From Escherichia coli (lineage in GTDB: Bacteria > Pseudomonadota > Gammaproteobacteria > Enterobacterales > Enterobacteriaceae): 64,000 nt of DNA. The DNA lies in the NCBI RefSeq assembly GCF_024223415.1, contig NZ_CP100500.1. One strand, given 5' to 3'. Below, piece by piece: positions 10,619 to 31,861 of the stretch; within the stretch, counting starts at the first letter, position 1; every line of letters starts with the position of its first letter. A program made the position numbers and the translations under genes. The notes under the pieces are model-generated. The model did no database searches. It was not told where the DNA came from and saw only the letters and a list, made by a program, of their open reading frames with translations.

Positions 10619-10649
10619 AGCACGGTAGACCCCGTACCGTGCTTTTTTT
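10619..10649 (+). terminator. rho-independent terminator downstream of mor
   Basis: GC-rich hairpin AGCACGGTA...TACCGTGCT followed by a run of 7 T. Confidence 0.5.
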
Positions 10650-10687
10650 ATGCTCTCTCTTTAGTATTCAGGATGCAGGGAGAAAAT

Positions 10688-11320
10688 ATGTTTGACGTTT
10701 CGTTGTTAAATCTGCCATGGGCAACACTGGTGACCCTGACCAGTGGCTATATTGGGTATTTTATTGCGAATGTGGGACTGAAGGATCACCACAAGCCCAT
10801 TGAGGTGACTTTTTCTTCGCTGATTTTTGGCCTGACAGCAATGATGGCTTACCAGGCTGTTATGTGGGCAGGTCTGAATGCCTGGCTGGCAACACCACCA
10901 GCACTTCTGTGTGCCGTTACATGCGGTGCGTGGTGGCGCAGGTACGGTCGCAAATGGATGTACAGATTACTGTGGAATAATGATATTTCATGGTCTGACG
11001 ATACCAGCTCAGCATGGCAGGCAATGTTTGATCAAACAGGCTTCAGCGTTACCGAGGTCAGAGTGATTCTTCGCGATGGTTCCGGTATGATGTCACGGCT
11101 GCCAGGGAACTTTGAACAGTGGCCTAACGGTCCGTTTACCCTGGGGAATAAAGGCGATATGGTTCTTTACGTCACGCACAGCAGCCCTTCAGGCAGTAAC
11201 GAATGGGAAGAGTATAAAGGCGTGGTTGATAAGTACTGGGGAGCTCTGGCAACCTATATTCCAGCAGATCAGATTGCCAGAGTGGAGATCAGGCGCGTTC
11301 GTGCAACGAACGATGAATGA
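10688..11320 (+). CDS. membrane protein (210 aa), N-terminal TM helices plus soluble C-terminal domain
   Basis: track ORF 10610..11320 trimmed to ATG 10688 (GGGAGAA RBS) because the upstream part overlaps the mor terminator. Confidence 0.5.
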   Translation: MFDVSLLNLPWATLVTLTSGYIGYFIANVGLKDHHKPIEVTFSSLIFGLTAMMAYQAVMWAGLNAWLATPPALLCAVTCGAWWRRYGRKWMYRLLWNNDISWSDDTSSAWQAMFDQTGFSVTEVRVILRDGSGMMSRLPGNFEQWPNGPFTLGNKGDMVLYVTHSSPSGSNEWEEYKGVVDKYWGALATYIPADQIARVEIRRVRATNDE

Positions 11321-11670
11321 TGTTTATTTTTTCCCTGGGGCAGGGGCTGCCGGCATAGTGGTTTTATTGGCAGAGGAAGACGATTCTCCTTTTCTACCGG
11401 AATCGCGCTCGAACGTCACGATGTGCTTGCTTTTGGGATTTTCTGAGTAATCCAGGCTATCATGCTTATTGTTTTGAGTAGTCATTGGAATCATCCTTTT
11501 TGTTGCGGGTCATGTTTCAGCAAACTCGATTCTAAGTTGCCAGGAAGGATGATTTCAATGCCCGACTTATCTATCGTATAGCGGAAAAGAATTTCAGTTC
11601 TGTTCACCAGAACCCATGTTAACCCACTCCAATTCGTTATTTATCTCACGGATCCCCCTTCATTTATCTC

Positions 11671-12012
11671 ATGTCTGATCAGGTGCGTAAGCTCTCTGGC
11701 GGCAACCAGCAGAAAGTTATCCTCGCGCGCTGCATGGCGCTCAATCCACGGGTGTTGATTGTCGATGAGCCGACGCGTGGCATCGACGTTGGAACCAAAT
11801 CGGAAGTGCACCAGGTGTTGTTTGATATGGCGAAAAAGGGCGTGGCGGTGATCGTGATCTCCTCCGATCTGCTTGAAGTGATGGCGGTGTCTGACCGGAT
11901 CATCACCCTTAGTGAAGGCCGGTTAACTGGCGAGATCCACGGTGACGACGCTAACGAAGAACGGCTGATGACGATGATGGCTATCAACCACAACGCCCTG
12001 AACGCGGCATAA
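11671..12012 (+). pseudogene. 5'-truncated sugar ABC transporter ATP-binding protein (C-terminal ~113 aa only)
   Basis: LSGGNQQK signature, Walker B LIVDEPTRGIDV; the N-terminal ~390 aa expected for a RbsA-like two-domain ATPase are missing. Confidence 0.8.
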
Positions 12013-12023
12013 CGGAGTTTCTC

Positions 12024-13052
12024 ATGACGCAGATGATTCCTAAAACGCAGGTCCCGGTAAAACGCGTCGGACGCATCGATCCCATTGCCTTCTTCGAGCG
12101 CTTCGGGGTACTGATTTTCATGATCCTGCTGCTGATCTTCTTTCAGTCGCAGAACAGTAATTTTTTCTCTGAACGCAATATTTTCAACATCCTGACCGAA
12201 GTCTCCATCTACGGGATCATGGCCGTGGGGATGACCTTCGTCATTCTGACCGCTGGGATCGACCTCTCCGTGGGCTCTATTCTGGCAGTGTGCGCCATGA
12301 CAGCGGCGTACGTGATCAAAGGCGACAATTTCACCACAGTCGATCCGAACGCTTGGGGCGGTATGAGCTGGCTGATTGGGCTGGGGATTTGTCTGACCAT
12401 GGGTACAGCGATTGGCTTCCTGCACGGTCTGGGCGTCACTCGCCTGCGCCTACCACCGTTCATCGTCACCCTTGGCGGGATGACCATCTGGCGTGGTCTG
12501 ACGCTCGTGATTAACGACGGTGCGCCGATTGCCGGCTTCGATCAGGGTTATCGCTGGTGGGGACGAGGGGAATTGCTCGGCATCTCCATTCCGATCTGGA
12601 TCTTCGCCATCGTTGCCATTGGTGGTTATCTGGCACTGCATAAAACCCGTTGGGGGCGCTTCGTCTATGCCATCGGTGGCAACCCGGAGGCGGCACGTCT
12701 GGCTGGGGTAAACGTGAAGCGTGTGCTGGTTAGCGTCTATGTGCTGATTGGCTGTCTGGCGGGGCTGGCGGGCTTCATCCTGAGCGCTCGTCTGGGGAGC
12801 GCTGAGGCGGTTGCCGGGATCTCCTTTGAGCTGCGTGTTATTGCCTCGGTGGTTATTGGCGGCACGTCGTTGATGGGGGGATATGGGCGCATCGGCGGCA
12901 CTATCATCGGCTCCATCATCATGGGCATTCTGATTAATGGCCTGGTACTGATGAACGTCTCGGCCTACTACCAGCAAATTATCACCGGATTAATTATCGT
13001 TCTGGCGGTGGCATTCGACACCTATGCCAAGAGCCGTCGCGGCGCACTGTGA
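12024..13052 (+). CDS. sugar ABC transporter permease (RbsC-like)
   Basis: 342 aa polytopic membrane protein downstream of the ATPase fragment. Confidence 0.8.
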   Translation: MTQMIPKTQVPVKRVGRIDPIAFFERFGVLIFMILLLIFFQSQNSNFFSERNIFNILTEVSIYGIMAVGMTFVILTAGIDLSVGSILAVCAMTAAYVIKGDNFTTVDPNAWGGMSWLIGLGICLTMGTAIGFLHGLGVTRLRLPPFIVTLGGMTIWRGLTLVINDGAPIAGFDQGYRWWGRGELLGISIPIWIFAIVAIGGYLALHKTRWGRFVYAIGGNPEAARLAGVNVKRVLVSVYVLIGCLAGLAGFILSARLGSAEAVAGISFELRVIASVVIGGTSLMGGYGRIGGTIIGSIIMGILINGLVLMNVSAYYQQIITGLIIVLAVAFDTYAKSRRGAL

Positions 13053-13060
13053 GGATCACG

Positions 13061-14194
13061 ATGAAAGAGGTTCGTATTGGATTGATTGGCACCGGGTATA
13101 TTGGCAAGGCGCATGCCATTGCCTATGCCCAGGCACCGACGGTGTTCAATCTGCGCGGCAAACTGGTGCGCGAGATGGTGGCTGAGGTGAACCCGGCGCT
13201 GGCGGCAGAACGCGCGCAGGCGTTTGGCTTCAATCGCTCAACCGGAGACTGGCGGGTGCTCGTGGCCGACCCGGCCATTGATGTGGTGGATATTTGCTCC
13301 CCTAACCATCTTCACAAAGAGATGGCGCTGGAGGCGATCCGCCACGGCAAGCACGTCTATTCGGAAAAGCCGCTGGCACTGAATGCCCACGACGCGCGTG
13401 AGATGGTCGACGCTGCGAAGCGGGCAGGGGTGAAAACGCTGGTGGGTTTCAATTACATGAAAAACCCGACGGCACAGTTGGCGAAAGAGATTATTGCGCG
13501 CGGCGAAATTGGTGAGGTGATCCACTTCTACGGAACCCACAACGAAGACTATATGGCCGACCCGCTTTCCCCTATTCACTGGCACTGTTTTAAAGAGACC
13601 GCCGGACTGGGGGCTCTGGGTGACTTGGCGGCACATATCGTCAATATGGCCCAGTATCTGGTGGGAGAGATTGAGCAGGTCTGTGGCGATCTGAAAATTG
13701 TGGTGCCGGCACGTCCGGCAAAGGCCGGATCGTCGGAAATGGTCACCGTGGAAAATGAAGATCAGGCCCACGCGATGGTGCGCTTTGCGGGCGGGGCGCA
13801 GGGCGTCATTGAAACTTCCCGCGTCGCCTGCGGCCGCAAGATGGGGCTGTCATATGTCATTACTGGTACCAAAGGAGCGATCAGTTTTACCCAAGAGCGG
13901 ATGGCAGAGATAAAGCTCTATCTACATGATGATCCGGTGAACCGTCAGGGGTTCCGGACACTGTTGGTCGGTCCGGCACACCCGGATTACGGCGCGTTTT
14001 GCATGGGCGCAGGTCATGGTATCGGCTTTAACGATCAAAAAACGGTGGAAGTGCGTGATCTGGTAGACGGCATTGCCACCGACGCACCGATGTGGCCGGA
14101 CTTCGAAGAGGGCTGGAAGGTCTCGCGCGTGCTGGATGCCATCGCACTCTCACACCAGCAGGGCCTCTGGCTGAACGTGAATGACATTGTCTGA
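13061..14194 (+). CDS. Gfo/Idh/MocA-family NAD(P)-dependent oxidoreductase (inositol 2-dehydrogenase-like)
   Basis: N-terminal Rossmann motif IGLIGTGYIGKAH; clustered with iol genes. Confidence 0.75.
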   Translation: MKEVRIGLIGTGYIGKAHAIAYAQAPTVFNLRGKLVREMVAEVNPALAAERAQAFGFNRSTGDWRVLVADPAIDVVDICSPNHLHKEMALEAIRHGKHVYSEKPLALNAHDAREMVDAAKRAGVKTLVGFNYMKNPTAQLAKEIIARGEIGEVIHFYGTHNEDYMADPLSPIHWHCFKETAGLGALGDLAAHIVNMAQYLVGEIEQVCGDLKIVVPARPAKAGSSEMVTVENEDQAHAMVRFAGGAQGVIETSRVACGRKMGLSYVITGTKGAISFTQERMAEIKLYLHDDPVNRQGFRTLLVGPAHPDYGAFCMGAGHGIGFNDQKTVEVRDLVDGIATDAPMWPDFEEGWKVSRVLDAIALSHQQGLWLNVNDIV

Positions 14195-14206
14195 AGAGGG
14201 TTCAAC

Positions 14207-16111
14207 GTGGAAAAGCAGTTTGATGTGATATGCATGGGCCGCGTGGCGGTAGACCTCTACAGCCAGCAAATTGGTGCCCGCCTGGAGGATGTGTCGAGCT
14301 TCGCCAAATATCTCGGCGGCTCGTCCGGCAACGTGGCGTACGGTACCGCGCGTCAGGGCTTACGCTCGTCAATGCTGGCGCGCGTTGGCGATGAACATAT
14401 GGGGCGCTTCCTGCGGGAAGAGTTAAACCAGGTGGGCTGCGATACCAGCCATCTGATCACCGATAAAGAACGCCTTACGGCGCTGGTGCTACTCGGCATT
14501 AAAGACCGGGACACCTTTCCTCTGATTTTTTATCGCGATAACTGCGCGGATATGGCGATTACTGCCAGCGATGTGGACGAAAGCTACATTGCCTCCGCAC
14601 GGTGTATTGCCATCACCGGGACTCACCTTTCTCACCCGCAGACCCGCGAGGCGGTGCTGACGGCGCTGAATTACGCCCGCCGTCACGGCGTGCGCACGGT
14701 GCTGGACATCGACTACCGTCCGGTGCTGTGGGGACTAACCTCTCTAGGAGACGGCGAAACGCGTTTTATCGTTGCCGAACAGGTTACCCGTGAACTTCAG
14801 GAGGTGCTACACCTTTTCGACGTCGTTGTCGGCACCGAAGAGGAGTTTCACATTGCGGGGGGCAGCACCGATACGTTGCAGGCGCTGGCGCAGGTGCGCC
14901 ACGTCAGCAAGGCGACACTGGTTTGCAAGCGCGGCGCGCTGGGCTGTTCGGTGTATACCGATGCCATTCCACCTCGGCTGGATGACGGTCTGACGGTGAC
15001 CGGCGTGCGTGTGGAGGTGCTTAACGTCCTTGGCGCGGGAGATGCGTTTATGTCTGGCCTGCTGCGCGGTTACCTGAACGACGAGGGCTGGGAGCAGGCG
15101 TGCCGCTACGCCAACGCCTGTGGGGCGCTGGTGGTCTCGCGCCACGGCTGTGCACCGGCGATGCCGAGCAAAATTGAGCTGGATGATTACCTCTCCCGCG
15201 CCGCGCTCGTTCCGCGCCCGGACATTGACCCGCGTCTTAACCATCTGCACCGGGTGACCACCCGCCGCCGCGAATGGCCGGAGCTGTGCGTGATGGCGTT
15301 CGATCACCGCAGTCAACTGGAAGATATGGCGCTGCAGTGCGGCGCGTCGCTTAAGCGTATTCCGGCGCTGAAACAGCTGATCCTGCAGGCCAGCCGAGAG
15401 GCGGCAAGCTCTGCCGGGCTGGAGGGGAAAGCCGGCCTGCTGTGCGATGGCACCTTTGGTCAGGATGCGCTGAACGCCATTACCGGCGAAGGGTGGTGGA
15501 TTGGTCGTCCCATTGAACTGCCAGGCTCGCGTCCGCTGGAGATGGAGCACGGTAACATTGGTACCCAGCTTATCAGTTGGCCGCAGGAGCATGTGGTGAA
15601 GTGCCTGGTCTTTTTCCATCCGGAAGATGCCCACGGCTTGCGTCTGGAGCAGGAGCAGAAAATCGCCGAGGTGTACCACGCCTGCTGTCAGTCCGGACAT
15701 GAACTGCTGCTGGAGGTGATATTACCCGCCACTATGCCGCGCAGTGACGAACTTTATCTGCGTGCCATTTCCCGCTTCTACAACCTTGGCATTTACCCCG
15801 ACTGGTGGAAACTGCCGCCGCTCTCCGCCGAAGGCTGGACGGCACTGAGCGAGATTATCGCGCGCCGGGACCCGCACTGCCGCGGCGTGGTGATCCTCGG
15901 TCTGGATGCTCCGGCGGAACAGCTGCGTGCCGACTTCAAAGCTGCCGCGGGGCAGGCGCTGGTGAAAGGCTTCGCCGTGGGGCGCACGCTGTTTGGCGAT
16001 GCCTCCCGCGCATGGCTGAAACACGATATTGACGATGCGCAGCTGGTGGCGCGCATCCGGGACAACTACCTGCAGCTTATCGCCTGGTGGCGCGAGCGCG
16101 GACACGCATAA
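14207..16111 (+). CDS. iolC: 5-dehydro-2-deoxygluconokinase (PfkB kinase fused to C-terminal aldolase-like domain)
   Basis: 634 aa; GTG start with GAAGAGGG RBS; PfkB motif GAGDAF; long C-terminal extension as in enterobacterial IolC. Confidence 0.75.
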   Translation: MEKQFDVICMGRVAVDLYSQQIGARLEDVSSFAKYLGGSSGNVAYGTARQGLRSSMLARVGDEHMGRFLREELNQVGCDTSHLITDKERLTALVLLGIKDRDTFPLIFYRDNCADMAITASDVDESYIASARCIAITGTHLSHPQTREAVLTALNYARRHGVRTVLDIDYRPVLWGLTSLGDGETRFIVAEQVTRELQEVLHLFDVVVGTEEEFHIAGGSTDTLQALAQVRHVSKATLVCKRGALGCSVYTDAIPPRLDDGLTVTGVRVEVLNVLGAGDAFMSGLLRGYLNDEGWEQACRYANACGALVVSRHGCAPAMPSKIELDDYLSRAALVPRPDIDPRLNHLHRVTTRRREWPELCVMAFDHRSQLEDMALQCGASLKRIPALKQLILQASREAASSAGLEGKAGLLCDGTFGQDALNAITGEGWWIGRPIELPGSRPLEMEHGNIGTQLISWPQEHVVKCLVFFHPEDAHGLRLEQEQKIAEVYHACCQSGHELLLEVILPATMPRSDELYLRAISRFYNLGIYPDWWKLPPLSAEGWTALSEIIARRDPHCRGVVILGLDAPAEQLRADFKAAAGQALVKGFAVGRTLFGDASRAWLKHDIDDAQLVARIRDNYLQLIAWWRERGHA

Positions 16112-17013
16112 TGGAGACGACAATGAGTGTACAACTGGGCATCAACCCGCTGACGTGGACGAACGATGATCTGCCTTCACTGGGCGCGGAGACATCTCTG
16201 GAGACCTGCCTGAGTGAAGGGAAAGAGGCCGGTTTTGCCGGCTTCGAACTGGGCAATAAATTCCCGAGAGAAGCGCGCCTGCTCGGCCCCATTTTGCAGC
16301 GCCACGACCTGCAGTTGGTCTCCGGCTGGTATTCCGGCCGCCTGTTGGAACGCAGTGTAGAGGACGAGATTGCTGCTGTGCAGTCGCATCTGACGCTGCT
16401 GCGAGAGCTGGGTGCAAAAGTACTGGTTTTTGCGGAAGTGAGTGGCTGCATTCACGGTGAGCAGCAGACGCCGGTTCACCTGCGCCCACGTTTCCCGCAG
16501 GAATGCTGGAAAGAGTATGGTGAGAAACTCACCGTGTTCGCCCGCTATACGCAGCAACAGGGGGTACAGATTGCTTACCACCATCATATGGGCACGGTGA
16601 TTGAGTCCGCTCAAGACGTGGACAACCTGATGCTCCACACGGGTGAGGAGGTTGGTTTACTGCTGGATACTGGCCACCTGACCTTTGCCGGGGCCGATCC
16701 GCTGGCGGTGGCACAGCGATGGGCATCGCGCATCAATCATGTTCACTGCAAAGATGTGCGCGCCGACGTGCTGGCGGACGTCAAAAACCGTAAAACCAGC
16801 TTCCTCGACGCGGTGCTGAGCGGCGTGTTTACCGTGCCGGGTGACGGCTGCGTGGATTATCCGCCGATTATGCAACTGCTGAAAACGCAGGATTATCACG
16901 GTTGGCTGGTGGTGGAGGCTGAACAGGACCCGGCGATCGCCCATCCGCTGACCTACGCCCGTCTGGGATATAACAATCTGAGCCGCCTGGCGCGCGACGC
17001 CGGGCTTATCTGA
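16111..17013 (+). CDS. iolE: sugar-phosphate isomerase/epimerase TIM-barrel protein (inosose dehydratase-like)
   Basis: start overlaps iolC stop (TAATG); N-terminal LGINPLTWTNDDLPSLG motif resembles IolE. Confidence 0.65.
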   Translation: METTMSVQLGINPLTWTNDDLPSLGAETSLETCLSEGKEAGFAGFELGNKFPREARLLGPILQRHDLQLVSGWYSGRLLERSVEDEIAAVQSHLTLLRELGAKVLVFAEVSGCIHGEQQTPVHLRPRFPQECWKEYGEKLTVFARYTQQQGVQIAYHHHMGTVIESAQDVDNLMLHTGEEVGLLLDTGHLTFAGADPLAVAQRWASRINHVHCKDVRADVLADVKNRKTSFLDAVLSGVFTVPGDGCVDYPPIMQLLKTQDYHGWLVVEAEQDPAIAHPLTYARLGYNNLSRLARDAGLI

Positions 17014-17022
17014 GGAGGTGAC

Positions 17023-17844
17023 ATGTCACGTCTGTTATCACGCTGGCAACAGCCGAACGCTGAGGGGCGGACTCAGTCTGTCACGCCGGAAAGCGCCGGA
17101 TGGGGATATGTTGGCTTTGAGGCCTATGAACTTGAGGAAGGGCAGCAACTGACGCTGCCCGCTGTCAGTGAAGAGCGCTGTCTGGTGCTGGTGGCCGGGC
17201 GCGCTTTCATCAGCACTCCTTCTGCACAGTTTATTGATATCGGGGAGCGGATGAGCCCGTTCGAGCGCATCAAACCTTGGGCGGTTTACGTCACCCCGCA
17301 GGAGGCAGTGCAGGTGAAGGCGCTGACGAAACTGGAGCTGGCAGTCTGTACCGCTCCGGGAAAAGGGACATACCCGACGCGGTTGATTGCACCTCAGGAT
17401 ATCGATGGCGAAGCGCGCGGTAACGGCCACAACCAGCGTTATGTGCATAATATTTTGCCGGAAGACAAGCCCGCTGACAGCCTGCTGGTCGTCGAGGTCT
17501 GGACCAACGAAGGCTGTACCAGTTCGTACCCGAGCCATAAACACGATACGAATAACCCGCCTCAGGAGAGCTATCTGGAGGAGACCTATTACCATCGCCT
17601 CAACCCGGAACAGGGGTTCTGCATGCAGCGGGTGTATACCGATGACCGCACACTTGATGAATGTATGGCGGTCTATAACCGTGACGTGGTCATGGTGCCG
17701 AAAGGGTACCACCCGGTGGCGACGATGGCCGGGTATGACAGTTATTACCTTAACGTGATGGCCGGACCAGTACGTAAATGGATATTCACCTGGGAAAAGG
17801 AACACTCATGGATAAACACAGAGTATTCTGCCATTTCTTTATAA
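17023..17844 (+). CDS. iolB: 5-deoxy-glucuronate isomerase-like protein
   Basis: 273 aa; family assigned from memory and from position after iolC/iolE. Confidence 0.6.
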   Translation: MSRLLSRWQQPNAEGRTQSVTPESAGWGYVGFEAYELEEGQQLTLPAVSEERCLVLVAGRAFISTPSAQFIDIGERMSPFERIKPWAVYVTPQEAVQVKALTKLELAVCTAPGKGTYPTRLIAPQDIDGEARGNGHNQRYVHNILPEDKPADSLLVVEVWTNEGCTSSYPSHKHDTNNPPQESYLEETYYHRLNPEQGFCMQRVYTDDRTLDECMAVYNRDVVMVPKGYHPVATMAGYDSYYLNVMAGPVRKWIFTWEKEHSWINTEYSAISL

Positions 17845-17866
17845 ACTGAGTACCTAAGCTAAAAAA

Positions 17867-17885
17867 GGGGAATGACTCCCCTTTT
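17867..17885 (+). terminator. rho-independent terminator after the iol genes
   Basis: GGGGA-loop-TCCCC hairpin flanked by A-run and T-run. Confidence 0.45.
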
Positions 17886-18588
17886 GTATAATATGACTCG
17901 ACAATGTTATTTCAAAGTCTGAGTGATGATTTTTCTCTCAGGCAGTATGTTCCTCAATAAGGATGAGAATGTATTCTGTTCATTGGCATATGCATTTATA
18001 TTCTAATGAGCTGAATTTTATAAAGGTTGTGGCTATTCTGGAGTATAAATATTTTTTTTCATTAGACATGAAAGTCTATATGATGGTGTATTAATATTTT
18101 TAGCAATTATGAACGGTTTGTCATGAACCAGTGACCAATTCGTTATGGTGGTGTGCGGTTATATGGTACCTGCTTATGGTGTTATGTTTTTGTCACGTTT
18201 TTGCTGGGGGGTAACATATGTATTGTTTATTTTATATGGTTTATTAAAAAGCTATGAACTCTTTTCAGAGTAATCTCTCACAGTTTTTTTTAATGTTTTA
18301 AAGTTGGTAGTGGTTTGTTATTTTATTTAACTATGTGTTCTTGAAAAAGAACAATGTTTTAAGTGTTGGTTTTTTATCCTTATGATTTTTTAAATGAACT
18401 ATTCAACAATTTACGCTGTGCTGTCCTACAGTTAAAGAGCGTTAATGTAATATCAAATGTAATTATTACGGACAGGCTGAAATCTGGTTGTGTACATCAG
18501 TTGGTGCAAAAAGGCTTATCAAAGTACTGAAATAATAGTAAGTACAATAATAATGATGAATATTGCTACATGGAGATTGGATTTGCCC

Positions 18589-19494
18589 CTATATTTCCAG
18601 ACACCTGTTATCACTTAACCCATTACTGGCTTGCTGCCGTAGATATTCCCGTGGCGAGCGATAACCCAGTGCACTATGCGGATGCCATTCGTTATAATGC
18701 TCGAACGCCTCTGCAAGGTTCTTTGCTGCCGTTAACCCGTCTGGTTTGGGCATGACACTGATGTAGTCACGCTTTATCGTTTTCACGAAGCTCTCTGCTA
18801 TGCCGTTACTCTCCGGACTCCGCACCGCCGTGCTCTTCGGTTCAAGCCCCAACATCCGGGCAAACTGCCGTGTTTCATTAGCCCGGTAGCATGAACCATT
18901 ATCCGTCAGCCACTCTACTGGAGACGCCGGAAGCTCGTTGCCGAAGCGGCGTTCCACCGCTCCTGGCATGACGTCCTGTACTGTTTCACTGTTGAAGCCG
19001 CCCGTAGTGACCGCCCAGTGCAGTGCCTCACGGTCACAGCAGTCCAGCGCGAACGTGACTCGCAGTTTTTCTCCGTTATCACAGCGGAACTCGAACCCGT
19101 CAGAGCACCATCGCTGATTACTTTCTTTCACAGCCACTCTGCCTGTATGTGCCCGTTTCGATGGCGGTACAGCAGGTTTTCGCTCAAGCAACAGCGCATT
19201 CTGGCGCATGATCCGGTAAACACGTTTGGCATTGATCGCAGGCATACCATCAAGTTCGGCCTGTCTGCGAAGCAGCGCCCATACCCGACGATAACCATAC
19301 GTGGGCAGCTCTCCGATAACATGGTGTATACGGAGAAGCACATCCGTATCATCAGTGTGACGACTGCGGCGGCCATCCATCCAGTCATCGGTTCGTCTGA
19401 GAATGACGTGCAACTGCGCACGCGACACCCGGAGACAACGGCTGACTAAGCTTACTCCCCATCCCCGGGCAATAAGGGCGCGTGCGCTATCCAC
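18589..19494 (-). CDS. insD: IS2 transposase ORFB (InsD)
   Basis: 301 aa DDE transposase, IS3 family. Confidence 0.9.
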
Positions 19495-19817
19495 TTTTTT
19501 GCCCGTCCATATTCAACGGCTTCTTTGAGGAGTTCATTTTCCATCGTTTTCTTGCCGAGCAGGCGCTGGAGTTCTTTAATCTGCTTCATGGCGGCAGCAA
19601 GTTCAGAGGCAGGAACAACCTGTTCTCCGGCGGCGACAGCAGTAAGACTTCCTTCCTGGTATTGCTTACGCCAGAGAAATAACTGGCTGGCTGCTACACC
19701 ATGTTGCCGGGCAACGAGGGAGACCGTCATCCCCGGTTCAAAGCTCTGCTGAACAATTGCGATCTTTTCCTGTGTGGTAAGCCGTCTGCGTTTCTCCGGT
19801 CCTAAGACATCAATCAT
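19452..19817 (-). CDS. insC: IS2 ORFA (InsC)
   Basis: track ORF trimmed to [12 protein letters not shown] start; 121 aa HTH protein. Confidence 0.85.
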
Positions 19818-20030
19818 CTGCTCTCCAATGACTAGTCTAAAAACTAGTATTAAGACTATCACTTAAATAAGTGATACTGGTTGTCTGGAGATTCAGGGGG
19901 CCAGTCTAGAGATATAAAGAGCGTCTAGCTCCGGATATATCTTTGACACTACGACAGTACTTGCAAAACGGGGTTGGTAATGCTGCCAACTTACTGATTT
20001 AGTGTATGATGGTGATTTTAAGGTGCTTGC

Positions 20031-20306
20031 GTGGCTTCCATTTCCATCAGATGTCCTTCCTGCTCCGCTACTGAAGGCGTGGTGCGTAACGGCAAAAGCA
20101 CTGCCGGACATCAGCGCTATCTCTGCTCTCATTGCCGTAAAACATGGCAACTACAGTTCACTTACACCGCCTCTCAGCCCGGTACGCACCAGAAAATCAT
20201 TGATATGGCCATGAATGGCGTCGGATGTCGCGCCAGTGCACGCATTATGGGCGTTGGCCTCAACACGGTTTTACGTCACTTAAAAAACTCAGGCCGCAGT
20301 CGGTAA
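20031..20306 (+). CDS. insA: IS1 InsA
   Basis: 91 aa, GTG start, CPSC...CSHC zinc finger. Confidence 0.9.
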
Positions 20307-20728
20307 CCTCGCGCATACAACCGGGCAGTGATGTGATTGTCTGCGCTGAAATGGACGAACAGTGGGGCTACGTCGGTGCTAAATCACGTCAGCGCTGGCT
20401 GTTTTACGCGTATGACAGGATACGGAGGACGGTTATGGCGCACGTATTCGGTGAACGCACTCTGGCCACACTGGAGCGTCTTCTGAGCCTGCTGTCGGCC
20501 TTTGACGTGGTGATATGGATGACGGATGGCTGGCCACTGTATGAATCCCGCCTGAAGGGAAAGCTGCACGTAATCAGCAAGCGATATACGCAGCGAATTG
20601 AGCGGCATAACCTGAATCTGAGGCAGCACCTGGCACGGCTGGGACGGAAGTCGCTGTCGTTCTCAAAATCGGTGGAGCTGCATGACAAAGTCATCGGGCA
20701 TTATCTGAACATAAAACACTATCAATAA
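20225..20728 (+). CDS. insB: IS1 InsB (expressed as InsAB' by frameshift)
   Basis: 167 aa; matches IS1 InsB. Confidence 0.9.
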
Positions 20729-20745
20729 GTTGGAGTCATTACCAG

Positions 20746-21432
20746 GAACGAGTACAGGAAAAATTCAGTTCTTTTTTAATTGCCTTTAAAGATGGTGTCA
20801 TCGGAGGGATACTGTCAGGTATTACCACAACGCTGTTAAATATATTCCTGACGACGGAAAGAATGATTGTCCGGCTTATCAGGGAAATGTGGAACAACCT
20901 CGTTCAGGCCTTTAAAGTCCTGGTATTTAACCCGGAGGGATTATCGCCGGGGCAGTTAGCCAAAGCGGTCACTAAACTGATAGCAGCAGGTGTGGCTGTT
21001 GCCGGTGGGGTGATGATAAATGAGGCGATGGCGCAGATCCTTATTTTTCCATTTGGTTCAGAGCTTGCTGCCTTTTGTGGTGCGCTGACGACAGGTATTC
21101 TCGGGCTGGTGATGAATTATTATCTCGAATATAGCGAGGTTATGCAGCGGGTATGGGCATTTCTGGACAAATTTAAGGACAAATTCCAGCGGTCACTGGA
21201 ATACTTTCAGGCAGTCAATGCTGAACTTGATCGCTATCTTGTGGAACTTACTGCACTGGAATTTTCTGTTGATGCTGCCGCGTTAAATCATTTTTCACTT
21301 CATCTGGATAGCGTAAACAGTGAGATAGAGCGCGGACTTCTGCTGAGAGAAGAAGTCAGCCGACGAGGGATTGCGTTGCCGTTTGAGTCAGGAAATGTGG
21401 CTTCTGTTCGTGACTGGTTAAATAAGCGATGA
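20746..21432 (+). pseudogene. 5'-truncated ORF of unknown protein, interrupted by IS1
   Basis: reading frame is open from inside the IS1 right end through to the stop at 21432; first ATG only at 20863. Confidence 0.4.
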
Positions 21433-21695
21433 AATTACACCCTCCATTTCCCTGTAACCAGTGTGGGGCCTGTTGTCGTCATGTCAACAGGGCGGGTGAA
21501 ACGCAATGTCTGGATCGTGGTGACGGTATTTGCCGTCACTATCAGACTGATTCTCATTTGTGTGCAATTTATGATAAACGCCCACAGATTTGCCGGGTTG
21601 AAGACCAGTATTTACTGAATTATCAGTCTCAGTACAGCTGGCAGGAGTTTATTGCATTAAACCAGGCCGCCTGCCTTATTCTGAATAAACTGTAA
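21429..21695 (+). CDS. YkgJ-family cysteine-cluster (CxxCxxCC) protein
   Basis: CNQCGACC ... C..C ... C motif. Confidence 0.65.
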   Translation: MKLHPPFPCNQCGACCRHVNRAGETQCLDRGDGICRHYQTDSHLCAIYDKRPQICRVEDQYLLNYQSQYSWQEFIALNQAACLILNKL

Positions 21696-21834
21696 TGCCA
21701 TTAATGGCGGCGTCAGGACAGAAACTGAGAGAACATAAAACAGTAAAATGTCATTCCGTTCAGCAGCCAGCGTTGCTTTCTCCGGCTGCTGTTATTGTAA
21801 GGCATTTTCGTTAAGAACGCAGAAGGAGAGGATC

Positions 21835-22032
21835 GTGAGATTGCTGTTAAAAGGGCTCGTCGGAATGGCGCTGGTCTGGCTTGTTATTGGTTTCGGGATG
21901 GAGTTATTTTTTCTCGCCGATCGGGTTCATCCGGCATTAAGAGTAATCGTTGGCCTGGGGATGTTATTCCTGATGATAATGATTGCGGGTGGTATGTGCG
22001 GTTCTCTTCTGTCACGAAAGAAAACATCATGA
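21835..22032 (+). CDS. small inner-membrane protein (65 aa)
   Basis: track ORF 21748..22032 trimmed to GTG with GAAGGAGAGG RBS; two hydrophobic helices. Confidence 0.4.
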   Translation: MRLLLKGLVGMALVWLVIGFGMELFFLADRVHPALRVIVGLGMLFLMIMIAGGMCGSLLSRKKTS

Positions 22033-22166
22033 CGTTCCTGTTTACGCCGTTACATTTGTGGCGGCGGATGATACCTGTTTTATGATTATTCAGAAAAATG
22101 TATTTACCTGTCACGGCATGTTCAGCGAGCGGCGCCGGACAGAAATATCGCTTTTACTCAATTATT

Positions 22167-23771
22167 ATGAAAATTAATCTTCCATTCATACACTGGCCAC
22201 GGATTAGCAATGATAAGCGCCTCGTGTTATCAGTGGTTGTCTTTATCCTTTTTAATCTCCTTGTATCCTCAGGAGCGCATCTGATTTACCGGATATTATT
22301 CTTTATCCTGGCGCTTCTTATTATTAAGGCAATGAAATCGCTTACGTTGCGTTTGATTCTTGCCTTCCCGTTCACATTACTGACTGCTGCAGATATCAGT
22401 ATCAGCCTGTATTCATGGTGTACATTTGGCACAACATTTAATGATGGTTTTGCAATCAGTATCCTTCAGACAGATCCTGATGAAGTAATAAGAATGTTCA
22501 GGATGTATGTTGTTTATGTTATCGCATTTATTATCCTCTTTTTATTGTTCTTCTGTTCAGCAATAAATAAAACGTCCTCATTGCCATCGGAAAAGGTCAC
22601 GGTAATTACATTTTTATTGTTAATTACAGTAACGTTATATTCTTCCTTCCAGTTTGCGTTGAAGAAACAGTATCAAATAAATGAAGTTGATCCTTACATA
22701 GTCGCTTCCCGGTTTGCCACATATACCTCTTTCTTTAATCTGAACTATTTTGCACTGGCCGCAAAGGAGCATCAGAGATTAATGACGATTGCTGATACCA
22801 TACCTCACTACGATCTGGTGATTACGGATAACAACACTGACGTATTTGTTCTGGTGATTGGTGAATCTGCAAGGACTGATAACATGTCCATTTACGGGTA
22901 TTCGCGCCCTACCACACCAGAGCTTCAGAAACAGAAATCACGACTGAAACTGTTCACTCAGGCAATCAGCGGGGCACCTTATACCGCTCTTGCGGTACCG
23001 CTGGCATTATCTGCTGATACCGTGCTGCATCATGATGTTCGCCGTTACCCCGATAATATTATCAACATGGCGAATCAGGCGGGGTTCGATACCTGGTGGC
23101 TCAGTGCGCAGTCCGCTTTCCGACAGAACGGAACGGCTGTGGCCAGTATCGCCATGCGGGCCAGAAACAGAATTTATGTCAGAGGCTATGATGAATTACT
23201 GCTCCCACACCTGGCTGAAGCACTGAACAGTAATCCGGGGAGCAGGAAACTGATTGTTCTGCATCTGACGGGCAGCCATGAGCCAGTCTGCAGTAACTGG
23301 CCCAGAGATAAAGCCGTGTTTAAACCGCTGGATACAGAAGAAGTCTGCTACGATAATTCCATTCATTATACCGACAGTTTGTTGGGACAGGTTTTCACCA
23401 TGCTGGAAACGCGTCAGGCATCCGTCATGTATTTTTCAGATCATGGCCTGGAGTATGACCCGACAAAAGAGCATGCCTATTTTCATGGCGGAATAAAACC
23501 CAGCCAGCAGGCTTATCATGTTCCGATGTTTATCTGGTACAGCCCGGCACTGGGAGAGCATGTCGATCGCCAGACGGTGAACAGCGTTTTTTCCACTGCG
23601 TATAATGATTATCTGATTAATGCATGGATGGGCGTAACCAGACCGGCTCAACCGAAAACGCCGGAGGAGGTGATTACCCGCTGGCAGGGGAAATCCGTGG
23701 TTTTTGATGCCAGTCATAACGTGTTTGATTACAAAGTATTACGAAAGAACTTTAATGAACTCCAGGAATAA
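22167..23771 (+). CDS. phosphoethanolamine transferase-like membrane protein (EptA/OpgE-type sulfatase domain)
   Basis: about 5 N-terminal TM helices plus sulfatase-like domain (VIGESARTDNMSIYGYSRPTTP, LHLTGSHEP); start chosen at MKINLPF, alternative 22098. Confidence 0.7.
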   Translation: MKINLPFIHWPRISNDKRLVLSVVVFILFNLLVSSGAHLIYRILFFILALLIIKAMKSLTLRLILAFPFTLLTAADISISLYSWCTFGTTFNDGFAISILQTDPDEVIRMFRMYVVYVIAFIILFLLFFCSAINKTSSLPSEKVTVITFLLLITVTLYSSFQFALKKQYQINEVDPYIVASRFATYTSFFNLNYFALAAKEHQRLMTIADTIPHYDLVITDNNTDVFVLVIGESARTDNMSIYGYSRPTTPELQKQKSRLKLFTQAISGAPYTALAVPLALSADTVLHHDVRRYPDNIINMANQAGFDTWWLSAQSAFRQNGTAVASIAMRARNRIYVRGYDELLLPHLAEALNSNPGSRKLIVLHLTGSHEPVCSNWPRDKAVFKPLDTEEVCYDNSIHYTDSLLGQVFTMLETRQASVMYFSDHGLEYDPTKEHAYFHGGIKPSQQAYHVPMFIWYSPALGEHVDRQTVNSVFSTAYNDYLINAWMGVTRPAQPKTPEEVITRWQGKSVVFDASHNVFDYKVLRKNFNELQE

Positions 23772-23867
23772 TTCATTAAAGTAATTTACTTCGCTATCCT
23801 TTTTCCAGTTACTCACAAAGAAAAATATTCAGAAAATAATTCCCGGGTTGGCAGCCCGGGATGATTA

Positions 23868-24143
23868 CTATTTTAATGGATTGTTAATCTTTGCATATTC
23901 AAACGGGCTGATACATTGTTCTCTGTTCGCATCCAGAAAATCTGCCCACCACTGTAGCATCAGTCGACGTTCTTCCAGATGTTCTGCTTTATGGATATAC
24001 GCAGCACGTACACCATTACGCTCCTGATGACTCATCTGACGTTCCACTGCATCGCGGGACCACAAACCTGATTTAATCAATGCACTGCACGCCATCGCCC
24101 GGAATCCATGGCCACAGACCTCTTCCTGCGTATTGTATCTCAT
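23868..24143 (-). pseudogene. 3' remnant of a P4-family tyrosine integrase (C-terminal ~90 aa only)
   Basis: GHGFR...RAAYIH...MLQWWADFLD aligns with the C-terminus of the intact integrase at 27068..28252; 5' two-thirds absent. Confidence 0.75.
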
Positions 24144-24451
24144 CAGTCTCAGTGCGTTATTGACCGTATTTTAACTAACGAGCTTGTGCCTGATTACCAA
24201 TAATTATCAGTTCATATTTTATGCAGACTTGTGCCAATCACTTGTTTTGAAAGAGGTTCTAAGATTCGTTGCATGCATTCTTGACCCTCAATGGTAATGT
24301 CTCGTTAAATATGATAGATATTAGCCGTAATTTTATTTTAGCGGGGTCGGTAAATTGGGGTGGAATTAGTCGATAAAAATATTAGAATACACTATTTTGC
24401 AGGCAAAATAGTGATATGATACATTTTTGTGTAAATTTATAAGGAGATAAG

Positions 24452-25375
24452 ATGGATAAGTTAAGGGCGCTAATTAGCCGAGCATCTAAGCTTTATAACA
24501 GGAATATAGATCATCTTCCAATAACTTTAGAACTAATCGAGTATTCAATGGGGCTTTTGGATAAGAAAGCAAGTTACGGTTATTTTGGTTCATTTGAAGG
24601 GAAAAAAGAAATAGACTACTATGCATTCTTTAGTAATAACGAGATCTCAAGACCTATTAGAGATGATTTATATATCAGAGATGTAAGTATCTATAAGAAA
24701 TTAAGTGACAACTTGTTTGTCGATTTAAAACAGTTCCGTTCTGTCTGGAGTTCAGATAAATCAATAGTAGCAAATAAAATTATATATACATCAGTTATGT
24801 CAGTTGCCTGCGCTTTTGATTTGTGGAAGAAAGGTAGTAGAAAAACACCTGGTACATTTTTTGAGATTTATATTGCTGCTCTATTGAAAGTAATGCTTCC
24901 GAATGAAGTTTTTTCAAAGCATATCCCATTGATTGATTCGATGAAAAATGATGAGGGGCTTAGAGATTCGGCGAATATTTCTACTGATCTGGTAATAAAA
25001 AGCCGCGCAAATGTTAATCGCGGAGTAGTTATCCCATTAAAAATAACAACAAGAGAGCGTATTGTTCAGCCATTTGCTCATCAACGAATTCTGGATTCAT
25101 ATTTTGGGAATGGTTTTTTTCATTCTTTCTTGGCATGCATTAGTGAAACTCAACAAGATAAGTTTAATCGAGAAGTAAACCATATATGTGTTCCTGGAAC
25201 AATACGATTGTATCAGAAATATTTATCAAGTATTGCGGGAATATATTATTGTGATATTCCAGAGAGATATTTACAAGCTGATTTGACCAGTATAATACCG
25301 GTCAAATCAATGGGGGAGTTTTTGTCAGATATAAATGATTTTTTTATGGAAATAGCTGAATCTGATCCTCATTAG
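24452..25375 (+). CDS. unknown 307-aa protein convergent with the C5-methyltransferase; putative Type II restriction endonuclease
   Basis: strong RBS (TAAGGAGATAAG); very AT-rich; 3' end overlaps the MTase 3' end by 32 bp; no nuclease motif recognised by eye. Confidence 0.45.
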   Translation: MDKLRALISRASKLYNRNIDHLPITLELIEYSMGLLDKKASYGYFGSFEGKKEIDYYAFFSNNEISRPIRDDLYIRDVSIYKKLSDNLFVDLKQFRSVWSSDKSIVANKIIYTSVMSVACAFDLWKKGSRKTPGTFFEIYIAALLKVMLPNEVFSKHIPLIDSMKNDEGLRDSANISTDLVIKSRANVNRGVVIPLKITTRERIVQPFAHQRILDSYFGNGFFHSFLACISETQQDKFNREVNHICVPGTIRLYQKYLSSIAGIYYCDIPERYLQADLTSIIPVKSMGEFLSDINDFFMEIAESDPH

Positions 25376-26468
25376 TCTTCTCAACAGGGTTTTGATAGTT
25401 GCTTTTTTCATAATTTTGTTTATTAAGACATTTAATAATTGCTGTTCCTGCCGCTTTAGCTACTGGCGGCGGAACAGCATTCCCAATTTGTAATCTTATG
25501 GCATCTCTTTTACCATAAAACCGATAGTCAACAGGGAATCCTTGTAACATTGCACCCTCTCTAAGAGTTATAGCTCTGTTCTGAGAAGGATGTCCATATC
25601 TGCCTCTGGTGAAGCTATCAAATCCCGCAGTAATTGTTGGACATTGTTTATCCCATTCAAGCCTCCCGTACACGTCAGGCCATCCGCCGGAGTTAGTATC
25701 AACATTTTGATGGCATTTTAGTCTCAAATCATGCGGAATATCCTTCCACCCCCCTCCGGGGGGAACATAAGAGAACCTTTCTTCATTAAGTTTAGTTATT
25801 TTACACTTAATATGATTAGGTATCTCGCAATGTTCACTATAATCGTCAGGAGGGGGAGGAAGATTACCAATAACATCTTTGATAGTAAGTTCGTTATCAA
25901 CTTTCTCCAGTTTAGGATAATCGCAGTTCTCAGATTTATCTATTCCGATCATAATAAAGCGCCCTCTCTTCTGGGCAACGCCAAAATCTGAAGAGCAAAT
26001 GAAAAAAGTGAATATGTTATATTTAAATAATTTCTCTTTTACTTCTCTTATTAAATCCTGTCCTCTCTTTTGTCCAAAAATTTCGACATTTTCAAACAGA
26101 AAAGCCCGGGGGTTTAGCTCATTTACCAGTCTGGAATATTCCAGTACTAACTTATTTCTTTCATCATTTAACAGATGAGCTCCTTTTCTTTGTTTGGAAA
26201 AGCCCTGACATGGCGGCCCGCCGCTAAAAAGATCCAGTCGGGAGTTTATTCCCGCTTTGTCTAAAAGAAACTTACCGCTAATAACCGAAGCATCTAATTG
26301 AAGACAATGCCCTCCAAGATTATTATTATATGTTTTCACGGCATCCTCATTGATATCAAATGCTAATTTGATATCGAACCCCGCTTGCTTAAGCCCAAGG
26401 GACATTCCTCCAGCACCACAGAAGCCTTCAATGCATGTAAGTTTTTGAACAGTATCAGCTTTACTCAT
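25344..26468 (-). CDS. DNA cytosine-5 methyltransferase
   Basis: motif I FCGAGG, motif IV PPCQGFS, motif VI ENV, motif VIII QKRGRF, motif X GNAVPPP. Confidence 0.9.
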   Translation of the reverse strand: MSKADTVQKLTCIEGFCGAGGMSLGLKQAGFDIKLAFDINEDAVKTYNNNLGGHCLQLDASVISGKFLLDKAGINSRLDLFSGGPPCQGFSKQRKGAHLLNDERNKLVLEYSRLVNELNPRAFLFENVEIFGQKRGQDLIREVKEKLFKYNIFTFFICSSDFGVAQKRGRFIMIGIDKSENCDYPKLEKVDNELTIKDVIGNLPPPPDDYSEHCEIPNHIKCKITKLNEERFSYVPPGGGWKDIPHDLRLKCHQNVDTNSGGWPDVYGRLEWDKQCPTITAGFDSFTRGRYGHPSQNRAITLREGAMLQGFPVDYRFYGKRDAIRLQIGNAVPPPVAKAAGTAIIKCLNKQNYEKSNYQNPVEKTNEDQIQLFP

Positions 26469-27067
26469 GTTAACTCACTTAATGCTCATTAATCTTCCTA
26501 GTATAACGATATTTATCAAACAAAACCATAGCTACATTTTAAACTAAAAGTAGCTAATAAGAACGATTGAATGACTTAATTTATATAAATAAGATATCCA
26601 GTATTGATACATCATGTGTTCAGCATGATGTATGTGCAACTGAAGCATCATTCGAAGTTTTCCTCAATATTCATATTCTGCATATATGCTATTCCAGATA
26701 ACTGGCCTGCCATTCGATATTATGACGAAGCCTGATTATGCTAATGCATCATACGCTATAACCCGGTATTTATGGCCACAGATATTTTGGATTGTGTCAT
26801 CTCCTGTAACCTTAAGGGGGGGATTGACGGTGTTTTATCTGCTTGCCCTGTGAGTACATGCATTTCCATAACATTCAGGCTATTTTCACCTACCGGAATC
26901 TGAAGTTCAGTCAGTATGCCTGCAACCTGTTTATGGTGTTGAACAGGGTTCAATAGCAGAATTTGGGCTTCTGGAGTGAGTTCAGAATGTGTTGGTAAAT
27001 CAAGCCACAATAAAACCGTTCAGTGGTCTGACTGGATGGCTCGTTATTATATCCACAGAGCTCTCAT

Positions 27068-28252
27068 TTATAGTGCGCACCTGGAGAGCGAATCAATGTA
27101 ATCTGCGTACCATTGCATCATTTCACGACGACCATCCAGGTACTGCGCATGGTTATAGGTACCCCTGATGGAATTTTTATCCACATGAGCTAACTGCATT
27201 TCAATCCAGGCAGAATTAAAGCCCTGTTCGTGCAGAATGGTACTCATGGTGTGACGAAAACCATGACCGGTTGCCCTGCCATCGTAACCGATACGTTTGA
27301 GCACCATATTGATGCTGGCTTCGCTCATTGGCTTGTTGATATCACAACGTCCCGGAAAAACCAGCCGGTATTGCCCGGAGAAAGTTTTGAGCTGCAGCAG
27401 AATGTCAGTGGCCTGTCGTGACAGTGGTACGACATGTTTACGTCGCATTTTCATGCGGCTTTCAGGGATTGTCCACAGGGCATTATCAAAATCAATTTCT
27501 GACCATTCAGCGAACCGTAGCTCAATGGTTCTGAGACCTGTCAGAAGCAGAAGATTTGTCGCCATGCGGGTAACAGGACTGCCATGATATTCAGCGAGCT
27601 TCCGGATAAAAGCTGGGAGCTCATCTGCTCTCAGGTGAGGGAAATGCGCCGCTTTTGGTGCCGCCAGTGTACTGGTCAGTTCAGATGCCGGATTGACAGT
27701 GGCTCGTCCGGTGGCGATGGCATAACGAAAAATCTGATTACAGTATTGGCGTACCTTACGAAGTTTCTCCAGCGAGCCACGTTTTTCTATGCGGCGCAGA
27801 ATTTCCAGCATTTCCAGCGGGAGGATATCAGTAACGCTTCGTTTGCCCAGATACGGAAAAATATCTTTATCCAGAGCCTCCAGTACGCTTCTGGCGTAAC
27901 TTTCAGACCATGACAAAGATTTATGCTGGTGCCATTCCGTAGCGAGGGCATGGAACGTATTGGTGGCAGAGATTTTCTGAGTGAGTTTTTCCTTTCGCTT
28001 CTTTTCGCCCGGGTCACCACCTTCGGAGATGATTTTTCGGGCATCGTCGCGTTTGATTCTGGCCTCAGCAAGGGAGACGTCGGGATAGACGCCGAGGGCC
28101 AGTTTTTTCTCTTTTCCTGCTATCCGGTATTTAAGCCGCCAGTAGCGGGCTCCCGTGGTTTTTACCAGCAGATATAAACCACGTTCGTCAGAGAGTTTAT
28201 AGTCTTTTTCTTTAGGTCTGGCTGTTTCGACCTGTCTGGCTGTAAGTGCCAT
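27068..28252 (-). CDS. P4-family tyrosine integrase (site-specific recombinase)
   Basis: 394 aa from MALTARQVETA; C-terminal HGFRHT...Y catalytic region; adjacent to tRNA-Phe 3' end. Confidence 0.9.
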   Translation of the reverse strand: MALTARQVETARPKEKDYKLSDERGLYLLVKTTGARYWRLKYRIAGKEKKLALGVYPDVSLAEARIKRDDARKIISEGGDPGEKKRKEKLTQKISATNTFHALATEWHQHKSLSWSESYARSVLEALDKDIFPYLGKRSVTDILPLEMLEILRRIEKRGSLEKLRKVRQYCNQIFRYAIATGRATVNPASELTSTLAAPKAAHFPHLRADELPAFIRKLAEYHGSPVTRMATNLLLLTGLRTIELRFAEWSEIDFDNALWTIPESRMKMRRKHVVPLSRQATDILLQLKTFSGQYRLVFPGRCDINKPMSEASINMVLKRIGYDGRATGHGFRHTMSTILHEQGFNSAWIEMQLAHVDKNSIRGTYNHAQYLDGRREMMQWYADYIDSLSRCAL

Positions 28253-28320
28253 ATGGGGGCTCCTGAAACTGACTGAACACAATGAGCCCCCACCGGTGCC
28301 CCCAATGAACGCTTGATTGA

Positions 28321-28410
28321 GAGAGAGTTCAGTAGAGTTCGGTGGAGTTCAGGATGTTCAGATTGCTTGTAACGATGTGATTATACTTGAGTTTCGTGGA
28401 GTTCGGGAGA
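28321..28410. repeat. cluster of 4-5 direct GAGTTC(A/G)G repeats between integrase and tRNA (possible arm-type recombinase-binding sites)
   Basis: GAGTTCAG, GAGTTCGG, GAGTTCAGG, GAGTTCGGG within about 90 bp. Confidence 0.4.
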
Positions 28411-28428
28411 TGAATCTGGAAGTGAAAG

Positions 28429-28504
28429 TGGTGCCCGGACTCGGAATCGAACCAAGGACACGGGGATTTTCAATCCCCTGCTCTACCGACTGAGCTATCC
28501 GGGC
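28429..28504 (-). tRNA. pheV: tRNA-Phe (anticodon GAA)
   Basis: reverse complement reads GCCCGGATAGCTCAGTCGGTAGAGCAGGGGATTGAAAATCCCCGTGTCCTTGGTTCGATTCCGAGTCCGGGCACCA, 76 nt with CCA end; flanked by yqgA-speC. Confidence 0.95.
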
Positions 28505-28609
28505 AACGGGGCGAATTAAACCTGATTCGCCTCGTCTCGTCAATCAAATTTCTTCAATTTACTGCAGACTGCACAATCTATCATCACTTTGCCGCTATTG
28601 CACGCATTG

Positions 28610-29317
28610 TCAGGCAAACCAGGCGGTCCAGGCGGCGGAAAGCGGCATTGCCAGAAGGAGTGCTGGAAGCATGTTGACCACCGGGAACATTTTAATGCCA
28701 CAGATGCGTAATCCGGTTGCCAGCAGCAATAAACCGCCTACGGCGCTGAAGTCTGCCATCATCGACGGTGTGGTCAGCGGTAATATCAGCGCGGCAGCCC
28801 ACGCCAGCGTTAACTGGATGATCAGTAATGGGATACTAATCACCGATACCGCAATACCCAGCGAGCAGGCGAAGATCATCGCCGTAAAGAAATCAAGAAA
28901 TGACTTGGCGATTAAAATACTCGGATCGCCGGTCATCCCTTCGTTCATCGCCCCGAAGATCCCGGTGCCGCTGGCGCAAAACAGGACAATAATCGCGACA
29001 TAATTCTGAATAAAAGATTCATGCGCTGGCTTCTTACGTGAGTGACGAAACAGATTTTGTGCTTTGGCGACCGCTGTATTGACGCCTTTCTCCAGCAGAC
29101 AAATTTCGCCGATTAATGCTCCGAGTAAGGTTGCTAAAACCATCGCTGGAAGGTTGGCGCATTTCACCACCAGTAAAATACCAATCCCCAGCGATGCCAG
29201 ACCAAAAATTGATGTCATGGAGACGCGGATACGTTCCGGTAAGCGTTGGCTAAGCAGTGCACCGAGCATGCCACCCAGTAATATTGCACTTGCGTTGATA
29301 AAAGGGCCGATGACCAC
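28610..29317 (-). CDS. yqgA: DUF554-family inner-membrane protein YqgA
   Basis: 235 aa polytopic membrane protein; conserved position next to pheV. Confidence 0.85.
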   Translation of the reverse strand: MVIGPFINASAILLGGMLGALLSQRLPERIRVSMTSIFGLASLGIGILLVVKCANLPAMVLATLLGALIGEICLLEKGVNTAVAKAQNLFRHSRKKPAHESFIQNYVAIIVLFCASGTGIFGAMNEGMTGDPSILIAKSFLDFFTAMIFACSLGIAVSVISIPLLIIQLTLAWAAALILPLTTPSMMADFSAVGGLLLLATGLRICGIKMFPVVNMLPALLLAMPLSAAWTAWFA

Positions 29318-29715
29318 AAGAGTTCCTGTTAACTGTATTGTTTGATTTTCTTATTATGAACTTTTTGCCTTGTTGATGGCTTGTCTGGTCGCAAAGTCCT
29401 GGCTTGCACGTCTTAGCGAAAGGTGCCATGATTGCGCGAATTTTCTCCTCTCTGTACGGAGTTTGCCCGATGCACGCCATCTCCTTACATTCTCTCGCTT
29501 ATCGCCGTTTCGCGCGAAACCCTTCTCTTTTTATGCTACTGCTCATGCGGTGAAGTTAACGCACGTTCACTGCAGGACAACAGTAAAATCAGAGCGTTTC
29601 TGCTTTTACTGATGTCTGGCGGTCGGAGCTGGTGACCAGTTTGACCCATATCTCATGGGGCAGGGTTTTACACCTTGTCCGGTATTCTTACTTCCCCGAA
29701 ACGGGTTTTGCGCTT

Positions 29716-31851: not shown

Positions 31852-31861
31852 GAATAAAAAA

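Follow-up and report, generated by a model that had tools for sequence, protein, structure and literature searches.

The only IS1 copy in the 64-kb stretch of Escherichia coli DNA analysed here (the window) occupies positions 19976-20743 on the + strand, is 768 bp long, lacks a target-site duplication and abuts an open reading frame whose 5' end is missing. This raises the question as to whether the element is a simple insertion whose duplication has decayed or marks a rearrangement and, in the latter case, by which route its two flanks came together and what became of the DNA between them.

The IS1 element and its two flanks

The element itself is in good order. Its 23-bp terminal inverted repeats (19976-19998 and 20721-20743) match at 19 of 23 positions, the insA (20031-20306) and insB' (20225-20728) frames are both intact, and a simulated -1 insA/insB' fusion at the A6C slippery site (20282) is free of stops through to the insB stop. 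By length, by the imperfect repeats of about 23 bp and by the A6C -1 frameshift alike, it belongs to the IS1 family. The 9-bp flanks are AACGGGGTT on the left (19967-19975) and AGGAACGAG on the right (20744-20752), and a scan for direct repeats of 7-14 bp with fewer than two mismatches, allowing either boundary to shift by up to 3 bp, returned none; the best near-repeats are two 7-mers with two mismatches each. The unequal flanks and missing duplication described in an earlier note on this DNA are thus borne out by the shifted-boundary scan, and re-inspection brought to light none of the matching 8-9 bp direct repeats that would speak against them. Nor does the element look like a simple insertion in its surroundings: besides the lack of an 8-9 bp duplication, its flanks map to two separate loci, with the left breakpoint at position 5067 of an iol reference locus (L003) and the right one at position 6001 of an island reference locus from strain 2013C-4991 (L001).

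The left flank is a 67-bp remnant of the DNA downstream of iolB (19909-19975, +), 100% identical to positions 5001-5067 of L003 and of a second iol locus, L004. It is present in 46 of 5426 complete genomes, each time as unannotated intergenic DNA, and the native sequence beyond L003 5067 starts TGCTTACATCCAGGAATA. On its other side lies an IS2 (18578-19908, - strand, 1331 bp, with InsC and InsD ORFs), a simple insertion outside the rearrangement, which is bounded by a 5-bp target duplication, GAGAT, at 18573-18577 and 19909-19913 (L003 5001-5005 on both sides). This perfect duplication, only 62 bp away from the left end of the IS1, shows that simple insertions at this site do leave duplications. 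The native left context continues through positions 11682-18577 (+), the 3' part of the myo-inositol (iol) catabolic cluster plus the intergenic DNA downstream of iolB, at 99.2-99.8% identity to strains ATCC 8739, MS 85-1, 33F4 and NCTC10444; for the cluster and downstream intergenic DNA of ATCC 8739 and MS 85-1 the identity over 13573-18577 is 99.2%. A 471-bp stretch within this intergenic DNA (17886-18356) is shared by the window, ATCC 8739, MS 85-1 and NCTC10444 and is missing from 33F4. Positions 1-11681 belong to a Mu-like transposable prophage; they are its right-hand end, the remainder lying beyond the left edge of the window, and carry genes for a DDE transposase, a MuB-like ExeA ATPase, Gam, Mor, gp16 and a Dam methylase. 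By its insertion into the gene for the ATP-binding component of the iol ABC transporter, the prophage interrupts the iol cluster of this strain.

To the right, the IS1 adjoins the 3' stump of a gene (20744-21432, +), consisting of a partial codon 295, residues 296-523 and the stop codon and equal to L001 6001-6689. In E. coli 2013C-4991 the intact gene is 1572 bp long (L001 5118-6689) and encodes a protein of 523 aa (WP_001100181.1), the C-terminus of which is the 228-residue translation of the stump. The window is collinear with 2013C-4991 across this region (20742-23804 and L001 5999-9061), and its positions 20744-21700 are 100% identical at the DNA level to alleles from genomes with the full-length gene, 2013C-4991 among them; nothing of the sequence to the left of the breakpoint (L001 1-5998) is found within the 64-kb window. 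The earlier note had read the frame as open from the IS1 end through 20746..21432, had taken it for a 5'-truncated gene and had proposed to look for the full-length homologue in other genomes. All of this stands. The frame runs without interruption from 20686, which lies within IS1, as far as its stop codon (21430-21432), and full-length homologues of 523-540 aa do occur elsewhere, of which the window keeps residues 296-523 only, residues 1-294 and part of codon 295 being missing. A complete gene starting at 20863, which would have argued against truncation, is not what we find: the ATG at 20863 is M335 of the native 523-aa protein, which makes the 189-aa ORF starting there residues 335-523.

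Since the left and right flanks derive from different loci, the missing duplication reflects a rearrangement and not decay, decay being the conventional account of missing duplications (10.1101/2024.06.02.596822). The junctions are also not a mis-assembly. A contig of assembly GCA_900482235.1 (L023) is 99.994% identical to window positions 19625-35375, both IS1 junctions included, and terminates inside the IS2, whereas the window runs about 19.6 kb further on that side; the two are therefore different assemblies, and the junctions are independently supported. It is thus hardly credible that nothing was rearranged here and that the locus holds a decayed duplication, a complete small gene from 20863 or a mis-assembled IS1. 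This reading is refuted by flanks that are 100% identical to two different loci, by the position of M335, which places the 189-aa ORF at residues 335-523 of a conserved 523-540-aa family, and by the same junctions in the independent assembly. Elsewhere the junctions are rare: neither of them occurs in the 5426 complete E. coli genomes, and the right junction has 0 matches in a GTDB set with a single genome for each species.

The IS1F/IS1A chimera and the event behind it

To type the element, we compared its diagnostic sites with two IS1F-type copies (L030 and L031) and two IS1A-type copies (L013 and L032). All 46 consecutive diagnostic sites at IS1 positions 4-523 are of the IS1F type, whereas from position 531 onward only the IS1A type is found. 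The IS1F-type two-thirds (19976-20498, +) extend from the left inverted repeat through insA into insB', whose 3' part belongs, together with the right inverted repeat, to the IS1A-type third (20506-20743, +); the switch falls between the last F-type site (523) and the first A-type site (531), that is, at IS1 positions 524-530 (20499-20505, +). Database matches give the same picture, with the left 523 bp matching copies of the IS1F family best (99.8%) and the right 245 bp (20499-20743) being 100% identical to copies annotated as IS1A or IS1SD. Over IS1 positions 524-768 there are 6 differences from the IS1F-type copy L030 and 19 from L031, which is the purer IS1F type. Among roughly 75,000 IS1 places in the 5426 complete genomes no copy is identical to the whole element, and the best full-length match is 99.0%. 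The element is, in other words, a mosaic of two types with a single switch point, as is expected of an IS x IS crossover. A second chimera of IS1F and IS1A is the fec-linked copy L030 itself (L030 301-1068, next to fecI), found in E. coli strain 104 and many others. It changes type somewhere between 573 and 597, its flanks (GGGGATTTC and TTGACTGCG) show no target duplication, and its PGAP annotation records an internal stop.

We think that the IS1 in the window is probably a hybrid that arose by homologous recombination between two IS1 copies, with removal of the intervening DNA. Of the two copies, one of the IS1F type would have inserted downstream of iolB; the other, of the IS1A type and pointing the same way, would have entered a three-gene cassette of that tRNA-Phe island, at codon 295 of its middle gene. 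A crossover at IS1 positions 524-530 would then have left one hybrid IS1 with the left flank of the IS1F-type copy and the right flank of the IS1A-type one, and would have removed the DNA between them: the first 294 codons of the gene with their putative HNH-like domain, the 359-aa gene upstream of it, a WYL regulator and further island DNA. What remained would be a promoterless stump (residues 296-523) and an intact 88-aa YkgJ-like gene. A hybrid IS1 with the flanks of two copies has no target duplication. A single crossover between an F-type and an A-type copy would account at one stroke for the mosaic element, its lack of a duplication and its flanks from separate loci. We infer that one event both formed the chimera and brought the flanks together, and that the DNA between the two copies was lost rather than moved.

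As a type of event this is ordinary and already known, a product of recombination between mobile elements. Deletions by homologous recombination between directly repeated IS copies (IS1 and IS5) are on record from mutation-accumulation lines of E. coli (PMC5009759) and from the long-term evolution experiment (PMC4173774), and they have in common with the present case one recombinant IS at the junction, no duplication and flanks from two loci, with IS1 as a main actor. Unlike in those deletions, the parents here are IS1 types that diverge by about 6%, which makes the crossover legible in the sequence to within 8 bp, something that is rarely possible.

The visible crossover is also what separates recombination from deletion by transposition. 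The earlier note had named both IS1-mediated adjacent deletion and recombination between two IS1 copies as possible causes; the rearrangement it proposed is upheld, and the single-switch IS1F/IS1A chimera now favours the second. For adjacent deletion, one pre-existing chimeric IS1 would have undergone intramolecular replicative transposition into the other site, deleting the DNA in between and keeping one of its original flanks. Such deletions are reportedly a classical property of IS1, said to go back to Reif and Saedler in 1975. Their end product is the same, a single IS1 that lacks a duplication and lies between unrelated flanks, one of them new; the transposase frames of this IS1 are intact, and chimeric copies occur independently, L030 being an example that could mean that the chimera predates the event and acted by transposition. 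A chimeric element is not predicted by adjacent deletion unless it is older than the event, however, and an identical copy is found at none of the roughly 75,000 IS1 places, whereas a single clean switch is what a crossover between two copies predicts without an extra assumption. We therefore regard adjacent deletion as unlikely, if far from negligible.

In other strains the two flanks lie 103 kb to 3 Mb apart. In the tRNA-Phe (pheU) island of strain 33F4, iol (+) comes first; 103 kb of mosaic DNA separate it from the WYL regulator, after which come the 359-aa gene, the 523-aa gene (+), int (-) and tRNA-Phe (-). As this is the order and orientation seen in the window, a plain deletion is sufficient, and given the 33F4 order deletion is the likeliest outcome of IS1 x IS1 recombination. 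The two-copy model has against it that none of the 5426 complete genomes carries a parental IS1 at either site (L003 5067 and L001 6001); only the recombinant is found, in GCA_900482235.1. The window, moreover, starts inside the prophage that interrupts iol, so that a location of iol inside the pheV island would fall outside its view, and in NCTC10444, the closest core-genome relative (100% over 24 kb), iol is at argW, 650 kb from pheV, and the pheV island is without the 523-aa gene.

The last two points could also fit IS1 x IS1 recombination without loss, as a cointegrate with a circular iol element or a larger translocation or duplication, in which the 5' half of the gene would survive beside the reciprocal hybrid IS1. 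The iol module evidently moves between islands, as it is at argW and not at pheV in NCTC10444, and the far side of the prophage at the left edge is outside the window. Set against this, the 33F4 order makes a plain deletion sufficient, and the observed orientation would be impossible to reach by a single inversion, as reasoned from the NCTC10444 layout. The 5'-half product predicted in such a case (residues 1-297 plus G) is absent from 153 billion gene positions, a weak argument, as it covers one allele and assumes a 9-bp duplication. Taken together, we consider recombination without loss quite improbable and continue with crossover and deletion as the preferred reading.

The truncated gene and its cassette

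Within the window, 20744-21432 is, on the evidence of its sequence, a dead and promoterless stump. No ATG, GTG or TTG codon lies in its frame upstream of 20863, and the InsB stop at 20728 is in a different frame. A promoter scan of 19850-21750 reports a single promoter-like site, which is IS1's own, and none between IS1 and the ORF. A hybrid promoter at the right end of IS1 (TTGGAG, 16-nt spacer, TACAGG) was considered and rejected; each hexamer matches at only 3 of 6 positions, and the scan does not report it. Expression of the stump is conceivable only by transcriptional read-through from the weak IS1 promoter. In annotations, the stump (or the 189-aa ORF) is best marked as a pseudogene, and the IS1 as a recombinant junction and not a simple insertion.

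The intact protein belongs to a family of 523-540 aa that is widespread in Gammaproteobacteria. In the part encoded by the stump, residues 312-420 comprise three hydrophobic segments, after which comes a coiled coil; the N-terminal domain that is lost in the window appears to be HNH-like. Searches with the intact protein gave no Pfam match at or below 0.001, nothing significant in PHROGs or among PDB sequences, and in NCBIfam a sole match to FtsW that is far below threshold (20 bits against a cut-off of 337 bits). PGAP names such proteins 'ATP--cob(I)alamin adenosyltransferase' or 'cobalamin adenosyltransferase', which is unsupported, there being no match to CobA, PduO or EutT profiles; this product name has been propagated across genera for the family without a supporting profile match.

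A different affiliation is suggested by PADLOC, in which the 523-aa protein matches model PDC-M40B (3e-42). PDC-M40 is a three-gene phage-defence candidate identified via 'guilt by embedding', the PDC systems being listed as candidates (bioRxiv 10.1101/2024.01.29.577857); a literature search for 'PDC-M40' found no paper that mentions it, the name appearing in a supplementary table only. Like PDC-M40, the cassette has three genes and occurs in varied genomic contexts: the trio of a ~365-aa gene, the 523-540-aa gene and an 88-aa CxxCxxCC gene is kept in Aeromonas and Pseudomonas in the same order and with the same 4-nt overlap, in genomic contexts that are unrelated. It differs from PDC-M40 in that the upstream 359-aa gene matches PDC-M09A (3e-22) instead of one of the M40 models, and for the 88-aa gene PADLOC gives no match; further upstream is the WYL regulator. 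The window itself holds only the dead stump of the M40B-like gene. The 523-540-aa family looks like the nuclease-membrane component of a candidate defence cassette. It is possible, and we suggest this tentatively, that the lost gene was the effector (an HNH-like nuclease with three hydrophobic helices and a coiled coil) of a three-gene anti-phage cassette that lies under a WYL regulator in E. coli, and that this cassette was lost several times independently, once in the window. If true, this would be a case of defence-system turnover by IS1 recombination in tRNA-Phe islands.

Other disruptions and the surrounding island

Most copies of the gene are not truncated: 376 of the 383 complete E. coli genomes that have it keep at least 80% of its length. 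The identical 189-aa product is nevertheless called in 82 blocks of a public collection, and the cases examined include frameshift or nonsense alleles as well as truncations. In strain 300709 (NZ_CP025903.1; L013 9170-9937 and L021), an IS1A copy without a duplication also truncates the gene from the 5' side, at L001 6056, 55 bp further in, and PGAP calls the stump a pseudogene ('cobalamin adenosyltransferase, incomplete, missing N-terminus'). The event is independent of the one in the window: the element is pure IS1A, has the opposite orientation and is joined to a different partner, the core fimbrial gene yqiH. From the gene orientations, the event is probably an inversion mediated by IS1. 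An IS1 also interrupts speC in this strain. A further 5' truncation, at L001 5947 (L011 9769-9828), has no IS at its junction with the neighbouring block, which carries AllF/G/H-like, LysR and small mechanosensitive-channel-like genes; it is shared by five or more assemblies, and both pheV and pheU are among its sites. With L001 6001 in the window, these breakpoints (5947, 6001 and 6056) fall within 110 bp. We rejected a mutational hot spot as the reason, because the cases were retrieved through the identical 189-aa product, so that the clustering is largely ascertainment, and because 376 of the 383 complete genomes keep the gene nearly whole, as given above.

The island has been struck by IS1 at another position as well. 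In L028 (1-706) and at L024 position 1, corresponding to window positions 22791-22794, an IS1A-type copy abuts the island within the phosphoethanolamine transferase gene; one of these sites is at pheU, and they represent a separate, independent IS1 event. The idea that they and the window are nested deletions from one fixed IS1 was dropped, as their IS1 is of the IS1A type and only 94% identical to that of the window.

To the right of the stump, the window follows the order of L001, in which the 523-aa gene is succeeded by the YkgJ-type gene, the phosphoethanolamine transferase gene, the integrase gene and tRNA-Phe. The third gene of the cassette (21429-21695, +; YkgJ/CxxCxxCC-type cysteine cluster) is intact and encodes 88 aa, its ATG overlapping the TGA of the stump. 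The phosphoethanolamine transferase gene (22098-23771, +; NCBIfam 2e-48) is likewise intact and collinear with L001, and is followed by the island integrase (27068-28282, -; NCBIfam integrase domain, 9e-93) and by the attachment site, tRNA-Phe (28429-28504, -; ARAGORN), which is pheV, next to yqgA. Window positions 20744-29400 are covered to at most 62% by any complete E. coli genome, and positions 40000-64000 are 100% identical to five of them, including NCTC10444 and KV7. An islet at 23805-27079 takes the place of the TPR-protein gene of other island copies. It contains a 90-aa C-terminal integrase fragment (23868-24143, -), a 307-aa protein that matches no family (24452-25375) and a Dcm-type cytosine methyltransferase (25344-26468, -), the latter two probably being a type II restriction-modification pair.
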